A stretch of 64,000 bases of DNA from Naegleria gruberi (lineage: Eukaryota). Position 1 is the first letter of the stretch, and each line of letters starts with the position of its first letter. Under the pieces are notes generated by a model. That model did not search any database, had not been told where the DNA came from, and saw only the letters and a program-made list of their open reading frames with translations. Position numbers and translations under genes: made by a program. Positions 4,404-16,270 of the stretch are shown here, in pieces. The DNA lies in assembly GCA_000004985.1 (NCBI GenBank), contig GG738859.1; one strand, given 5' to 3'.

Positions 4404-6316
4404 TTATAAAACCCATTCCCACTCACTGGCTATGTTAAAATCAACTTTCCCAAAGAAATCAATTTTCTGTGGCACAAAGAATGTCAAAATATGATCAATT
4501 GACTCATAGATTCCATCTCCAGTGAGTGCACAACCTGCTTGTATGTACCATTTTCTATCTGTTATGCTGTTCAGATTCAAATCATTGGCGATATTGGCGC
4601 AAGATGCAGCACTGAAGAAATCCTGCTTATTACAAAACACAACAATTGAAGTTTTCTTTGGAATACTTTCCAAAACAGTCCAAAGTAAATCTTTGGCTTG
4701 ATTCATTCTGCCAGTGTCTGTAGAATCAACAACAAATATTACAAAATCTGCTTCTTGTGCATAATCTTTCCACAAGTTGGCTAATCCACCAAAATCTTTC
4801 TATTCAAATATTAAATTAAGATGGTAAAAAATAAATTACTTACAATTGTAAAGTCAACATCTTTGTAATTAATCATTTGTGTGTTAAACTTATCAGTTGG
4901 AATAGTTAACACAACTTCACCCAAATACCACTTGTACAGGAGGGTTGTTTTACCACCACCATCAAGACCAATTAAAAATCCATTCTTTTTGGTTCGTTTC
5001 TTCTGTTTCTTCTCGAGGACCTTAATTTCTTGGAGACCCAATAGTTCTTTTGGAACTCCTCTTACGTGCAGAAGTGATTTGAGCATAATATCCTTCAGTT
5101 GATTTTTGGCAGATGTGAATAAATCTTCCTTTCCAAGATTTACAAAAATTGAAAAGAATGGAAACAAAATCTCATCATCATTAATTTTTGAAAAATCAAT
5201 AAACTCGAGCACGAATTTGTAAGCTTCCTCAAATCTTGCTTCATAATCTGTAACCACCCAAAAAATCAAAAAGTAAGTGACAGCCATCAAATCACCATTC
5301 GACAATAAACTCAATAGAATTTGTTTTAGCAACTCGAATGGCATTCTTCCAATCACCTTGTAATGAGCGTATTTGCTAACAACATAGCTAATCATTGCAT
5401 GCAAATCTTTCTCTGTAAATATTGGAACATGTTGCATCAAAGTTTGTTTGAATAACTTCTTGTCCTTTGTTGAATAACAACTGAGATCCTCTTCGAGCTC
5501 TGTATAACCAACCTTTCTATAAATTGGATCACATATAATGCAAGATGGTTGTGCAGAAATAATTGGAATAGTCTCTTCATAAATTATTGATTTGCAATCT
5601 TCAGATAATTCAATGGATGCAAGTGAAATAGTGAGAGCATTGTAGGCATTACAAACTTTGGAAATGGATTTTGTTAAACTCTCAACTTGATATTCATCTG
5701 CGATTTGTAGCAAACCTATTAAATCATCCATTTTAACAATAATTTCACTTTCTGATTTTGATTCGAATGTTAACTTATCAGAACCCAAATATCCAATGTG
5801 CACATAGTCAATCATCCATTCAAAATACTTATCAGATGTCTCAAGTGTCATTTCACTTGTTCTTGCTTCAATCATTTCACTATTTAACATTCTCTCAAAA
5901 ACTTTGCATTCTCTGGAAAGTATTTTCTTGGAAACTTGTAAATTGACCTTTCTATTAGGAATGCTAATATTGAATACATCTTGTTCATCAGTATTTTCAC
6001 TTTCGTATTTCACCAAAATGAAACCAACACCATTATTTTCAATTTTCTTTTTTACTTGATCGGAAGAGGCAACATTTTCTCTTCTCAGATAATAGCCGAT
6101 ATTTTGCTGAATGTAATCTATCAGAGAGGTGTTGATACCATAATTACTAACGAAACCTTTCCAATAACTTTCAAAATTGGTTGGAGGTACAACATCAGAT
6201 TGCATACCAAGAATATAATTCTGATCGAGTTCGGGAGAAATACAATACCAATGCGAGAGATTTTTAATTTCTTCTGTGTTGGCAATGGTATAATCAATAA
6301 TATCTTGGTTGATCAT
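4404..6316 (-). CDS. BTB/POZ domain - ARF-like small GTPase fusion protein (~622 aa); complement(join(4404..4799,4844..6316)); 44-nt intron 4800..4843 (GTAAGT...AATAG)
   Basis: N-terminal ~490 aa contain a BTB-like segment (DVFNISIPNRKVNLQVSKKILSRECKVFERMLNSEM...LLQIADEYQVESL). The C-terminus has ARF-family G motifs: G1 GLDGGGKTT and TIPT in exon 1; DFGG, NKQD and CALTGDGIYESIDHI in exon 2. The intron splits the GTPase domain. Confidence 0.7.
4800..4843 (-). other. Spliceosomal intron (44 nt, GTAAGT...TAG) inside the ARF-like GTPase domain
   Basis: ORF 4811..6316 runs into GTAAGT in frame. Splicing joins it to ORF 4404..4775 in frame and restores the DxxG (DFGG) motif. Confidence 0.7.
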
Positions 6317-6381: not shown

Positions 6382-7452
6382 TTAGTTTCTTTCATTGGTA
6401 ACTTCACTCAATAATTGAGCAGTCCATTCATTAATTGAAGTGGTGGATGCATTTGGACAAAGATGAGCATGAGTAAATGCCATCCATCTTCCAGACTTGA
6501 TACATTTAGCACCAATAGACTTCAAACGTTCTCTCAATCCTCTATCGGATGTAACAAATAGACAAGAATCCAAAGTGCCAGCAATATTTTGTCTATTTGC
6601 CAATTCAACAAGCATATCATCAGCAATGGTGAAACCTTCCTTCTTGGCAGATGAAACAACAAATGTTCCATCATTGAAAGTACCATTAACTTGATTGCTT
6701 GAAGCATCGAAAACAACATGCATTAAATTCAATTTTTGATTTAAAGTTGTTTCAGAGAACTGAGAATACTTTTTGGCCATATGGACTAGTAATTCTTCAA
6801 CGAGGTGTTTCTTCTTACTCTTTAGAATTAAACCTCTCAAAGTACTGGTTTGGAAGAAGAGATTATTACCATCAATTACAATTCTACTAATTTCTGGATT
6901 CATCTTGGATGCAATTCCAGTACTTTCATCTACAAGAATTACATCATCAGTATGAATCTTTTGAGATTCTTCATTTTGGAAACGACGTTTTTCTTGACGT
7001 TCTTGTTTCTTGAGCTCTCTTTCAGCTTTTCTTTCACGCTTGTCATTGGAAACTTTATCCTTCTTTAACTTTTTCATTCTAATCTTGAAATCAACAATGA
7101 ATGATTCAACAGAAGTTGTGATGGAGGAATCAAGACGATGTTGAAGAATGGAATTAATAGAATTGGTCCAATCTTCATCAGTATGAAGGACTCTAAATTT
7201 TTTACCAGATTTTGCCTTAAAATCCTTAACCTTAACAATCTTGACAGATTTTGGTTCTTCATCATCATTCAAATTTGAATTAAATTGCTTTTCAATATAA
7301 TCTTTCAAATCTTGAAGATTTTCCAATGGAGAGAAAGAAGGTACACTTTGTTCAATAATTTGAATATCATCATGCTTCTTCATCATATAATTTAATTTAA
7401 TTCCAATTGGTTCGGAAGCATTGGTGTTGTTATTAATTGTGTTACTAATCAT
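6382..7452 (-). CDS. NYN (LabA/YacP-like PIN) nuclease domain protein with Lys/Glu-rich N-terminal region
   Basis: C-terminal half has the NYN pattern VIDGNNLFF ... HVVFDAS ... LFVTSDRGLRERLKSIGAKC. The N-terminus is a low-complexity charged coiled coil. Confidence 0.45.
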   Translation of the reverse strand: MISNTINNNTNASEPIGIKLNYMMKKHDDIQIIEQSVPSFSPLENLQDLKDYIEKQFNSNLNDDEEPKSVKIVKVKDFKAKSGKKFRVLHTDEDWTNSINSILQHRLDSSITTSVESFIVDFKIRMKKLKKDKVSNDKRERKAERELKKQERQEKRRFQNEESQKIHTDDVILVDESTGIASKMNPEISRIVIDGNNLFFQTSTLRGLILKSKKKHLVEELLVHMAKKYSQFSETTLNQKLNLMHVVFDASSNQVNGTFNDGTFVVSSAKKEGFTIADDMLVELANRQNIAGTLDSCLFVTSDRGLRERLKSIGAKCIKSGRWMAFTHAHLCPNASTTSINEWTAQLLSEVTNERN

Positions 7453-10910: not shown

Positions 10911-13337
10911 TTATTCATATATTTCTCCCATGATGAGAGTGATAAGAGCAGACCAACCAGTGAAAGGATGAGCTCCTTGCCCCTTCCCGGTTTGAGCATT
11001 ATATTGTTCGTAGAGGGTTCTAGATCTTCTCCATTCGTTATATAATGTTTGAATAATGTTGGTTCTGAGAGCATTATAAACTTCACCACATCTTGCTGAT
11101 TTCTGCTTACAATTGTGAAGAGCTCTCAAAGTCAAATAATTCAAATTAATCCAAATAGGGCCTCTCCAGTAATTTTCCTTAGTTCCAAACATTGGGTCAG
11201 TTTGACTCAAAGATGTCAAACCGTGCACGGTCCATAATTTATCTCTAATGATAGTGTCCAAGGCATGTTGAAGAAGTTTTGGTTCTTGTTCAAAGTCAGG
11301 AACATCAAAGAGGAATGGGAAAAGTGAAATATAACCAATGTGAGGTGAAAATTCTGGTCTAGTATCATTGCCAACAGGTTTACCAGCATAGTCACTAAAC
11401 CATTCAATATTCTTATTGTAATGTTGAGTCTTGATATTGGATTTCAAAGTCTTGAGTCTTTCAACTAATACTGGATCGTCCTTCTTGAAAATAATATTAT
11501 TAATCTTGTTCATTGTGTCTGTCATCATGTAAATCCAGCAATACAAATCCAAGTGACGTTCGTCATCACTAGGTTCAACATTACCTCTTGGATAATCATC
11601 AAGACCAGAAGAAAGTGTATGACCAGGAGTTCTACCTCTCCATCTGTATGAGTTTGGAATCTTTCCTTTTTGTGTGGACAAATACCATTCATAATTCTTC
11701 TTCATGTTAGGATAGACTTGATTGAGGAAAGAAACCATAGCTTCTGATTCAGACAATGATGCTACTCTTTGTGTGGCATCCAAATCTAGTTCAATTTGAT
11801 GATTTCTAGCATGATTCTTCAATAACTCCAAAACAGCAAGGAAGAGCATTGGAGGATTGGCGTGAGTATCGTGTTGGACTTGGAATTGTTCTGGAACTCT
11901 TGTTCTGGCTTCTGCTCCAAGAATTTGTTCTCTTGGAATCCATCCAGTACTCTTATCCATAACATTGAACCAATTGTTAATAATATCCTTTGCAATTTGC
12001 TTATTCCACTTTTGAATAAGAAGAGAGTGGAAACCTTCATCCCACAAGAATCCACGAGGGAAGAATGATCTACATGGACAGGCAGTAAACAAGGCATATG
12101 GCTCAATGGTTCTAATTTCTTGAAGATTTCCCTTTTGATGATAAGAATCACCATAATAATATCCAATACCTCCCACAAGATTAGAAAGAGCATACATGGT
12201 CATTTCTTTTTCATCTTCTTTCAAGTTCTTTTCCTTAAGGTTGAAAGTTTCTTGGAACTTTTGTTCAAAGCATGTCTTGAGTTGCTTAATATTGTTATCA
12301 AAGTTGTCGATATGATCTGAACCATGTTGCTTAATTTGGAAGTTGGAGAAAATATCTGGATGTTGCTCATGTGAAAGGAATGCAACATTCAAATCAAATG
12401 GTGCATAGAAAAATTTTTGAATAACAAGGATATTGCTGTCTTCCTCAATAAAGTTTGGCAAAGTGGCAATTGGGATTGGATAGTCTTTTTGTTCTGGCAA
12501 TCCTTTTTGTCTTCTTTCTTGTTGATCTTCAATCATTTGTTGGAAGGATTTTTTCATTTGAGAAGAGAACATTTCCTTAACTTCATCTCCAATTTTCCAC
12601 ACATCACTTGGAGTTCTCTTCACACCATAGAAATAAAAGTTTGCATGTTCATCAACTTGAGATTTTTCATTAGAGGTAAAGTACATGGAAAAATCTCCAA
12701 TGTCACCACTGTTTCCTCTAATAATTACTGGAAGATTGGATGGAAGACCTTGCTTCTTTGAACCTTGGATTCCAGAAATTCTAAATGATCCTTCTCCATC
12801 ATTTTCAAGAGCAATATAGAAACAAACAGACATGGCTTGCTTGGTTTTCATTTGTTTCAATTCCTTTCCAATAAGTCTAACAGTCCAATCACCCCCCTTT
12901 TCATTAACAGAAGGAACAAATGTATTTTCCGAAACATGTTTCATCATTCTAGTTTCGATTTGAAGAGAATTTTCGTGATCTTTGATTGTTTGCATGGCAA
13001 AGTTTTGTCCATCATGTCTATTCCACCCATAGACTACATTATTAAAATCCATATTACTATTGTGTCTCATCTTGTTAACTCCATCCCAAGTATCTGCTCT
13101 GTTCCACATTAATCCTGTAATAACAGACTTTGGATTTCTAGTTTTCATTCCGAATATTACTTGTGGTCGATAGGTTCCCCACTTCATTGTGTGATTGTAG
13201 AGAGTGGTTTGAAAGACTGGATCCGATCGGTGAATACAATTATTAGTTTCCAATTCATTTCCCATGACAATTTGAGAAGTTATCATCAATGTGCTAATAA
13301 AACACAATAACAAAAGTGAATAAAAGAATCTACTCAT
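10911..13337 (-). CDS. MOGS: Mannosyl-oligosaccharide glucosidase (ER glucosidase I, GH63), type II membrane protein
   Basis: Full-length colinear similarity to MOGS/CWH41, including the diagnostic FFPRGFLWDEGFH, HANPP, LDDYPR and the C-terminal (GH)PFTGWS blocks. Probable start is MSRFFYSLLLLCFIS (signal anchor) at 13337; the track ORF extends to 13412. Confidence 0.85.
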   Translation of the reverse strand: MSRFFYSLLLLCFISTLMITSQIVMGNELETNNCIHRSDPVFQTTLYNHTMKWGTYRPQVIFGMKTRNPKSVITGLMWNRADTWDGVNKMRHNSNMDFNNVVYGWNRHDGQNFAMQTIKDHENSLQIETRMMKHVSENTFVPSVNEKGGDWTVRLIGKELKQMKTKQAMSVCFYIALENDGEGSFRISGIQGSKKQGLPSNLPVIIRGNSGDIGDFSMYFTSNEKSQVDEHANFYFYGVKRTPSDVWKIGDEVKEMFSSQMKKSFQQMIEDQQERRQKGLPEQKDYPIPIATLPNFIEEDSNILVIQKFFYAPFDLNVAFLSHEQHPDIFSNFQIKQHGSDHIDNFDNNIKQLKTCFEQKFQETFNLKEKNLKEDEKEMTMYALSNLVGGIGYYYGDSYHQKGNLQEIRTIEPYALFTACPCRSFFPRGFLWDEGFHSLLIQKWNKQIAKDIINNWFNVMDKSTGWIPREQILGAEARTRVPEQFQVQHDTHANPPMLFLAVLELLKNHARNHQIELDLDATQRVASLSESEAMVSFLNQVYPNMKKNYEWYLSTQKGKIPNSYRWRGRTPGHTLSSGLDDYPRGNVEPSDDERHLDLYCWIYMMTDTMNKINNIIFKKDDPVLVERLKTLKSNIKTQHYNKNIEWFSDYAGKPVGNDTRPEFSPHIGYISLFPFLFDVPDFEQEPKLLQHALDTIIRDKLWTVHGLTSLSQTDPMFGTKENYWRGPIWINLNYLTLRALHNCKQKSARCGEVYNALRTNIIQTLYNEWRRSRTLYEQYNAQTGKGQGAHPFTGWSALITLIMGEIYE

Positions 13338-13590
13338 AGGTGGTGAAGATGACACTGAACACGTGTTAAGCTGGTGGTGATTTGCTGTGCCAAGTATCAT
13401 CCGTGTGGTCATTTTTTATTCTTTTGTTACTAGAACCTCTCAAAGCTTTAATAATTCATACTAGTAGTAATGAATAATTTGTTTTATTATCTGTTCTTTG
13501 AATAGTTGATGAATAAATATTCATTGAATACTAATGGGATGAAGACTTGATTGTTGTATGATGATAAGAAAGAATAATAAAAAATTAAAA

Positions 13591-15136: not shown

Positions 15137-16270
15137 TTATTTTTCTTCATTCAAGAGATTTGCAGTATCTGAAAGATTTTCATCATTCTGAAAGTAATCT
15201 TGCATTTCTAATAGTGAGAAGAAGGCATCTTGATTAGCACTAATTGAAATAAAAGTATTCGAATCGAGTGATTCCTTTGAACCCCACTTGTTCTTACTTT
15301 CAATTACTTCCACTCTTTTGAACTGACAAATGGAAGTTTTTATGGCTACTGCACCTGCCAAGACATCATGGAACTTTTTTCCTTCAGCATTCTTTTCTAA
15401 ATATTTGGCCATTCCTCTATAAATAATTCTCAATCCTATTAAAGCTAAAACTTGACTTGGTGTCTTGTTTTTCAAATTCGAATACTTTTCAATTTGAGAT
15501 TCCAAACTTGTGTGTCTTTTTGGTCCATATATCACACCGTGACAAACATTCTTCGAAACCAGTATTCTCCTATCAATCCATTTCGAATTCAGCACCATCT
15601 TGGCTGCTGGAACATTTCCTCCAAAATTATATGTTGAAACCATCTCTTCATTCTTGAATTTCTTCAATCTGAAAGGTTCTGGTACAACATTTGGACCAGC
15701 ATATCCCCCCTGAATGACACACAATCCAATCCTCTTTTCCTCCTCATTGAATTCATCTTGATTATTCTTAATAAATGTTCCAAGATTACTGAGAGGAGCT
15801 CCTGTAACGAATAGCAACTTAGTTCCATGCACTCTCCAACATTCACTCATCAAATCATATCCCAAACCGTCACCAATCGATTCTTCCTCCTCCATGAATT
15901 TAACATAGTTAGGATAGAGTTTAGCTAAAAATCCCGAAAGACAATCCTTCTTATGATGAGGATTAAAAGCACCCACTTTAATCTTGCTCAATCTTTCAAT
16001 AATTGAATTCATATCAAGACCACTTTCCAAATCTGCCTCTTGTTTCTTGCACTCGACTACTAATTCAGATAAAAAACATTTTACAAAGGCAATTTGACTT
16101 TTCGAACCAGGAGCAATTGTTATACATTGAATATCAATCTCGGGATGGCACACTAAAAAGACCATATTGAAGAAATCATCAGGATCACCTGTTTCCATAT
16201 CAATAATGCATGGAATCATTTTTTTTGTGTATGAACTCTTGAAAATAGATTCAATTTTGAAATCAACCAT
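15137..16270 (-). CDS. Inosine-uridine preferring nucleoside hydrolase family protein
   Basis: N-terminal IU-NH aspartate cluster (CIIDMETGDPDDFFNM), a DxDxxxDD-type motif, and overall size/fold pattern. Substrate not inferable. Confidence 0.55.
   Translation of the reverse strand: MVDFKIESIFKSSYTKKMIPCIIDMETGDPDDFFNMVFLVCHPEIDIQCITIAPGSKSQIAFVKCFLSELVVECKKQEADLESGLDMNSIIERLSKIKVGAFNPHHKKDCLSGFLAKLYPNYVKFMEEEESIGDGLGYDLMSECWRVHGTKLLFVTGAPLSNLGTFIKNNQDEFNEEEKRIGLCVIQGGYAGPNVVPEPFRLKKFKNEEMVSTYNFGGNVPAAKMVLNSKWIDRRILVSKNVCHGVIYGPKRHTSLESQIEKYSNLKNKTPSQVLALIGLRIIYRGMAKYLEKNAEGKKFHDVLAGAVAIKTSICQFKRVEVIESKNKWGSKESLDSNTFISISANQDAFFSLLEMQDYFQNDENLSDTANLLNEEK

Follow-up and report, generated by a model that had tools for sequence, protein, structure and literature searches.

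Gene structure and identity

We have analyzed a stretch of 64,000 nucleotides (nt) of contig GG738859.1 of the amoeboflagellate Naegleria gruberi NEG-M (G+C content 33%), referred to here as the window, and specifically one gene of its minus strand, NgrArf1j. This gene codes for a single protein of 622 amino acids (aa) that combines a BTB domain and a BACK domain with an Arf-family small GTPase domain. From the N terminus the order is an extension of ~110 aa, the BTB domain, the BACK domain, a polybasic linker, a G domain probably derived from Arf1 and a tail of 25 aa. The positions of all these features are given in Table 1.

Read without splicing, the locus contains two open reading frames (ORFs), one of 501 codons that goes from the ATG at 6316 to a stop at 4811, and a second one in another frame (4775..4404). 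The first of them ends 10 codons into the intron (...DFTIVSNLFFTILI, then the stop). Removal of the segment 4843..4800 (GTAAGTAATTTATTTTTTACCATCTTAATTTAATATTTGAATAG), which has canonical splice sites, merges both ORFs into a single frame of 622 codons. At the junction (...DVDFTI/KDFGGL...) an unbroken Arf beta3/switch II region is found, and the spliced sequence (...INYKDVDFTI/KDFGGLANLWKDY...) aligns to ARF1 without interruption except for a deletion of 3 residues. The intron thus splits the G domain. The P-loop is missing from exon 2, and exon 1 covers no more than the first third of the domain, so neither ORF by itself could encode a working GTPase. An exact-sequence look-up indicated that the spliced protein is letter for letter EFC46346.1 (XP_002679090.1, UniProt D2VA08), annotated as "ARF/SAR family small GTPase". 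An earlier note on this DNA had put the gene model together by hand from the letters alone, and this model coincides with the public annotation. The 44-nt intron that it proposed is borne out both by this identity and by the conservation of the intron position in relatives (see below). The note had also assigned the first ~490 aa to the part preceding the GTPase. This was too long, since exon 1 already reaches into the G domain and the non-GTPase part is ~440 aa. Altogether, these sequence comparisons confirm the two-exon BTB-BACK-Arf gene of N. gruberi as real.

The gene model and the BTB-Arf architecture are already known. Table S1 of Vargova et al. 2021 (Genome Biol Evol 13:evab157, PMC8358228) lists XP_002679090.1 as NgrArf1j, group Arf1, with BTB as the extra domain and with no entry for N-terminal myristoylation. 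NgrArf1k, NgrArf1l and NgrArlX2 are listed beside it and likewise flagged as BTB, and the authors propose a link of such proteins to ubiquitin circuits (PMC8358228). The earlier note had regarded a BTB-ARF fusion as unusual. The protein that it described is real, but its architecture is not new. Our literature searches found no functional study of NgrArf1j, and no mention of its accession numbers in the main texts that they returned. What is added here are the BACK domain, the phi-x-E motif, the change of the catalytic glutamine to leucine (a position not discussed in the survey of Vargova et al.), the membership of NgrArf1c in the same family, and the relatives in Naegleria lovaniensis, Naegleria fowleri and Willaertia. 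In practical terms, the value is a confirmed gene model in which the BACK domain, the phi-x-E motif, the glutamine loss and the range of the family are now annotated.

Table 1. Features of the NgrArf1j gene and protein, with their positions in the window.
Feature	Position	Strand	Evidence or remarks
BTB-BACK-Arf gene NgrArf1j, 622 aa	4404..6316	-	ATG at 6316, stop codon 4404-4406; sequence, ORFs, splicing, exact match to annotated protein
Exon 1, codons 1-491	4844..6316	-	ORF and splice analysis
Phase-0 intron, 44 nt, GTAAGT...ATAG	4800..4843	-	splits the G domain after beta3 and before DxxG
Exon 2, codons 492-622 plus stop	4404..4799	-	ORF and splice analysis
N-terminal extension, aa 1-111	5984..6316	-	partly low confidence in models; conservation
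S21-H-W-Y-C25 motif	6242-6256	-	conserved in the family, outside any known domain
BTB/POZ domain, aa 117-222 (Pfam envelope)	5651..5968	-	PF00651, 23.1 bits; family profile against SPOP; fold
phi-x-E motif M148-I149-E150 (predicted Cul3 contact)	5867-5875	-	within the BTB domain
BACK-like all-helical domain, ~aa 236-420	5057..5611	-	KLHL11 BACK profile match, fold match, helical hairpins in models
Polybasic flexible linker, aa 431-444 (IKVLEKKQKKRTKK)	4985..5026	-	located where Arf proteins have their N-terminal amphipathic helix
Arf-type G domain, aa 445-597, with the intron inside it	4482..4984	-	G1 G450LDGGGKT, switch I T474, G3 D493FGG-L497, G4 N548KQD, G5 C581AL
D493FGG-L497 motif (Leu at the Arf1 Gln71 position)	4782-4796	-	alignment to ARF1
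C-terminal tail, aa 598-622	4407..4481	-	conservation
x-F-G motif F606-F607-G608	4449-4457	-	in the tail, outside any known domain

The BTB-BACK module

The prediction of a BTB domain placed N-terminal to an Arf-family GTPase held in a Pfam search, in which both PF00651 and PF00025 match NgrArf1j. The BTB match extends over aa 117-222 with E=8.7e-5 and 23.1 bits, the gathering cut-off being 20.5. As this score is marginal, we carried out additional tests with a profile of the family and with predicted structures. The profile, built from the N-terminal parts of 12 members of the BTB-BACK-Arf family described below, matches the BTB domain of SPOP with E=2.3e-9, followed by KBTBD2 (1.8e-7), KBTBD4 (2e-6) and KLHL3 (2.5e-5). 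Hence, judged by profile and modeled fold, the BTB domain is weak when NgrArf1j is considered as a single sequence and firm for the family. The BACK domain was not detected by Pfam in NgrArf1j. Positions 296-374 of the family profile match region 162-241 of KLHL11, its BACK region, with E=3.9e-5.

The AlphaFold2 model of aa 1-441 had a predicted local distance difference test score (pLDDT) of 73 and a predicted template modeling (TM) score of 0.75. Over most of aa 112-270 the pLDDT was ~83-96, with a dip to ~53 at aa 181-190. When this model was compared to the PDB by Foldseek, the closest folds were those of KBTBD4, SPOP, KBTBD2, KLHL11 and KLHL3, all of them adaptors of cullin-3 (Cul3). The BTB-BACK region of KLHL11 aligned over 325 columns with a TM score of 0.51 normalized to the target. 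Going by profile and predicted fold, the N-terminal part of NgrArf1j is a full BTB plus BACK module that resembles the Cul3 adaptors SPOP, KBTBD and KLHL11.

In the family-profile alignment the segment SEMIESK of NgrArf1j falls on EMEESK of SPOP, and M148-I149-E150 within it is what we take to be the counterpart of M83-S84-E85 of KLHL3. These KLHL3 residues define the phi-x-E motif, which in Cul3 adaptors is expected in the alpha3/beta4 region, and the E85A change abolishes Cul3 binding (PMC3616122). Most members of the family have the consensus SEMIES, but four (P0096, P0019, P0020 and P0105) lack the motif or have it changed. The presence of BACK after BTB, the phi-x-E motif and the identity of the nearest matches by sequence and fold support a role of NgrArf1j as a putative Cul3 adaptor.

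The Arf G domain

The Arf domain (PF00025) was detected by Pfam at aa 433-595 with E=4.8e-40, above the curated threshold, and is 44% identical to human ARF1. All the nucleotide-binding motifs (G1, switch I, G3, G4 and G5) are intact. There are three departures from ARF1. The catalytic glutamine (Q71 of Arf1) is replaced by leucine (K492-D-F-G-G-L497), the tryptophan of WDxGG (W66) by lysine, and 3 residues are missing from switch II. The length of the interswitch is kept. The two PDB matches with printed alignments (9c58 and 7dn8) are ARF1 chains that have leucine at position 71 as well.

The earlier note had described the domain as ARF-like. Membership of the ARF family stands, but judged by similarity the domain probably derives from Arf1 rather than from the ARL proteins. 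In the ranking of PDB similarities ARF1 came first with 139 bits, followed by ARF4 (122), ARF6 (~115), ARL1 (~114) and ARL5/8 (~102). Vargova et al. also place NgrArf1j in the Arf1 group, by 'SeqSim' only (PMC8358228).

Leucine at this position makes the domain comparable to the Arf1 Q71L laboratory mutant, which carries the identical residue. The difference is that in NgrArf1j the substitution is natural and comes together with W66K and the deletion in switch II, and that its biochemical effect is predicted only. Arf1 Q71L is the classical GTP-locked state, in which the hydrolysis stimulated by GTPase-activating proteins (GAPs) is strongly impaired. By this analogy, NgrArf1j is predicted to bind GTP with a strongly impaired GAP-stimulated hydrolysis. 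The intact binding motifs, the leucine, the shorter switch II and the linker that takes the place of the N-terminal helix would all point to an Arf domain that binds GTP, hydrolyzes it poorly and does not cycle. We consider that the domain is probably GTP-locked rather than membrane-cycling.

Linker, N-terminal extension and tail

The absence of a myristoylated N-terminal helix, anticipated in the earlier note, follows from the position of the domain: ~444 residues precede it, which makes myristoylation at Gly2 impossible, and the segment directly before it is polybasic. We considered whether an Arf-type amphipathic helix could be hidden within the linker and ruled it out, because its hydrophobic moment is low (0.3-1.1, compared to 1.8 for the ARF1 helix). 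The pLDDT falls below 50 at aa 434-439, and the basic stretch KKQKKRTKK directly precedes the G domain. At the other end of the protein, the x-F-G motif of the tail appears as FFG, YFG, HFG, IFG or RFG in the Naegleria members of the family and is absent in Willaertia.

Distribution and evolution of the family

Word-indexed homologue searches returned two proteins only and missed the query itself, whose 90% identity cluster is represented by a 123-aa fragment, the ORF of exon 2. The range of the family was established instead by an exhaustive HMMER scan of the N-terminal profile against 1.84 billion cluster representatives. About 15 proteins showed homology over BTB, BACK and their flanks (E values from 1e-230 to 1e-21), and below them only generic BTB proteins were found. 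The named matches come from only four species: N. gruberi (XP_002672337.1, which is Arf1k, and XP_002679438.1, which is Arf1c), N. lovaniensis (3 genes), N. fowleri (2 genes) and Willaertia magna (at least 4 gene models). The rest are from metagenome contigs. An Arf domain or a piece of it was present in every full-length match scanned with Pfam and in most of the gene-call fragments. Where a fragment had a piece only, it consisted of the first strands of Arf, since prokaryote-style gene calling had stopped at the intron. Among the named proteins, BTB-BACK-Arf is thus a small gene family seen only in two genera of amoeboflagellates, Naegleria and Willaertia. The search for orthologous fusions in other taxa that the earlier note had suggested did find them, in N. 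lovaniensis, N. fowleri and W. magna.

A distance tree pairs NgrArf1j with C9374_007058 of N. lovaniensis, with 33% identity. This gene has a single intron of 165 nt at the identical phase-0 position (...DVVM/TEVGG...). In N. gruberi Arf1k there is an intron of 41 nt at the equivalent position (...KITM/WDVGG...) and a second one of 42 nt. Within +/-6 kb of the N. lovaniensis locus we found no synteny with the window, so the orthology of the two genes rests on their reciprocal closeness in the distance tree. The fusion is old: it is common to four species, and the intron position is kept in the three genes examined.

The catalytic position could be compared in 9 full-length members. Glutamine is present in 3, within a canonical WDVGGQ, and the others have L, T, A, S, S and C. 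Since glutamine is kept in a third of the members and the substitutes are varied, it is probable that the ancestral fusion started out with an ordinary Arf1-type switch and that competence for hydrolysis was given up in most of its descendants.

Two further observations concern the N. gruberi paralogues. NgrArf1c (XP_002679438.1, P0096 in our set), located on another scaffold, carries BTB-BACK by our analysis (E=8.5e-39 with the profile, via its cluster representative, and 21.6 bits for the Pfam BTB), and has no extra domain in the table of Vargova et al. The Arf1k gene structure given above was read from a metagenomic contig of 2348 bp (ENA ERZ929261, contig k127_93829, L001 in our set) that contains a gene copy sharing at least 90% identity with N. 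gruberi Arf1k, split at its introns of 42 and 41 nt by prokaryote-style gene calling. This indicates the presence of DNA from an N. gruberi-like amoeba in that metagenome sample.

Comparison with known systems

The best matches by sequence profile and fold are the Cul3 adaptors of the KLHL/KBTBD (BTB-BACK-Kelch) and SPOP (MATH-BTB) types, which have in common with NgrArf1j the succession of BTB and BACK and the phi-x-E motif. They differ in that the Kelch propeller or the MATH domain is replaced by the Arf GTPase in NgrArf1j, which adds an N-terminal extension of ~110 aa. Among the small GTPases, RhoBTB1-3 are also atypical GTPases fused to a BTB-type Cul3-adaptor module. However, their GTPase is of the Rho type and N-terminal and they have two BTB domains, of which the first contains an insert. 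We considered membership in this group and rejected it, because the GTPase of NgrArf1j is Arf-type and C-terminal and is accompanied by a single BTB plus BACK. The two fusions are analogues of independent origin.

In the same way, TRIM23/ARD1 has a ubiquitin-ligase module on the N-terminal side of its Arf1/6-like G domain, and this domain has no myristoylated helix. TRIM23 is itself a ligase (RING, B-box and coiled coil) and not a cullin adaptor, and it is restricted to metazoans. It also keeps the catalytic glutamine. As no RING or B-box match was found by Pfam in NgrArf1j, membership was rejected here too and TRIM23 is an analogue only. Vargova et al. name it as a precedent, and in their Fig. 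8A they describe a Rab-BTB-BACK-Arf protein of Malawimonas californiana (PMC8358228). This protein resembles NgrArf1j in having BTB and BACK directly upstream of a C-terminal Arf, and differs by its extra N-terminal Rab domain and its unrelated lineage. The exhaustive HMMER scan revealed no homology between them beyond the generic domains.

Proposed function and alternatives

The reading that we favor, to which we give about an even chance, is that NgrArf1j could be a dimeric Cul3 substrate adaptor with a GTP-binding, hydrolysis-poor Arf domain in the place of Kelch or MATH. The BTB-BACK module would dimerize and, in the manner of SPOP, KLHL and KBTBD proteins, would dock on Cul3 with M148-I149-E150 together with the first hairpin of BACK. 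As the Arf domain sits where the adaptors carry Kelch or MATH, it may serve as the module that recognizes partners or substrates. It would bind GTP and hydrolyze it poorly, with no on/off cycling at membranes of the Arf style, and its permanently 'active' surface would bring Arf-binding proteins to the ligase.

Several points weigh against this proposal. The BTB score of the single sequence is just above the threshold. Lysine in place of W66 and the shortened switch II could alter the binding of effectors or even of the nucleotide. The three members with WDVGGQ indicate that GTP-locking is not family-wide. BTB domains also act without cullins. The proposal presupposes a Cul3 orthologue in N. 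gruberi, and our literature searches found nothing on Naegleria cullins. Finally, Cul3 binding, dimerization, nucleotide binding and hydrolysis are predictions from sequence and modeled structure, and the receptor role of the Arf domain is likewise something we infer.

An alternative that we regard as unlikely, at the level of perhaps one case among several, is a self-regulation similar to that of RhoBTB. The Arf domain would fold back on BTB-BACK to gate the binding of Cul3, and the substrates would be recognized at the N-terminal extension or the tail. The precedent is that the GTPase domain of RhoBTB binds the first BTB and blocks Cul3 binding (PMC4931677). The flexible linker would allow such folding back, and the conserved SHWYC and x-F-G motifs are candidates for additional binding sites. 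On the other hand, the order of the domains is opposite to that of RhoBTB, a single BTB is followed by BACK where RhoBTB has two BTBs, and the Arf domain of NgrArf1j holds the position that Kelch or MATH have in typical adaptors.

Rather improbable in our opinion is a cullin-independent scaffold, in which BTB-BACK would only di- or oligomerize an atypical Arf acting in membrane traffic or the cytoskeleton, with the linker, as a substitute for myristoylation, attached to the membrane electrostatically. Many BTB proteins do work without Cul3, and the position of KKQKKRTKK next to the G domain would suit such an attachment. The many alternative modes of membrane association described in the ARF family by Vargova et al. 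(PMC8358228) are also in favor. Yet phi-x-E and BACK/3-box, which are specific to BTB proteins that bind Cul3, are kept in most of the family, and every one of its nearest relatives in sequence and fold is a Cul3 adaptor.

The possibility that the protein is a decoy in a host-pathogen conflict, a mimic of Arf1 that traps microbial or viral effectors to have them ubiquitinated through BTB-BACK, seems to us very unlikely. Intracellular bacteria and giant viruses have natural hosts in Naegleria and Willaertia, which fits a decoy, as does a family that is lineage-restricted, multi-copy and fast-evolving, with only 33% identity between the putative N. gruberi and N. lovaniensis orthologues and with L, T, A, S or C at the catalytic position in 6 of the 9 full-length members. 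Nevertheless, the case is purely circumstantial and there is no known effector. Lastly, an artefact of annotation (two ORFs wrongly joined) or a decaying paralogue or pseudogene is hardly credible and we reject both: the divergence of the G domain (44% identity to human ARF1, Q71L, W66K and the deletion) would fit them, but the intron cuts the domain in the middle into parts that are useless alone, its splice sites are canonical, its length of 44 nt is usual for the family (the paralogue has 41-42 nt), N. lovaniensis keeps both its position and an open frame of full length, and all the nucleotide-binding motifs are intact.

Returning to the Cul3-adaptor reading, a broader version of it would make the BTB-BACK-Arf proteins of vahlkampfiids Cul3 receptors with a naturally GTP-locked Arf as bait, which might ubiquitinate Arf effectors, GAPs or guanine nucleotide exchange factors, or trap the effectors of pathogens. 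We put this forward as a speculation with a rather small chance of being right. In such a case the loss of glutamine in 6 of the 9 members would be an adaptive fixing of the 'on' shape.

NgrArf1j would represent a further case, beside RhoBTB and TRIM23 and in a deeply branching eukaryote, of a small GTPase wired into the ubiquitin system. A GTP-locked Arf acting as substrate receptor, if true, would be a distinct route to ligase specificity, and could reveal which proteins of the Arf pathway are controlled by degradation in Naegleria, including the pathogen N. fowleri.

Genomic context

For six further ORFs of the window we found identical N. gruberi proteins, encoded on one 530-kb scaffold, the same to which NgrArf1j belongs. 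There is no second copy of NgrArf1j or related ORF in the window. The four nearest neighbor genes, searched with Pfam for signs of functional linkage, gave no match. Housekeeping genes are found nearby, all on the minus strand and with no evident functional link to NgrArf1j: a fragment of the 3-beta-hydroxysteroid dehydrogenase/epimerase family (361-1116), an inosine-uridine nucleoside hydrolase (15137-16270) and a mannosyl-oligosaccharide glucosidase (10911-13412). The upstream neighbor, NAEGRDRAFT_65698 (356 aa, 6382-7452, minus strand, no Pfam match), has its stop codon 65 nt from the ATG of NgrArf1j. At 90% identity it clusters with NAEGRDRAFT_49463 and NAEGRDRAFT_72723, which are located on two other N. 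gruberi scaffolds, indicating a recently duplicated multi-copy gene.

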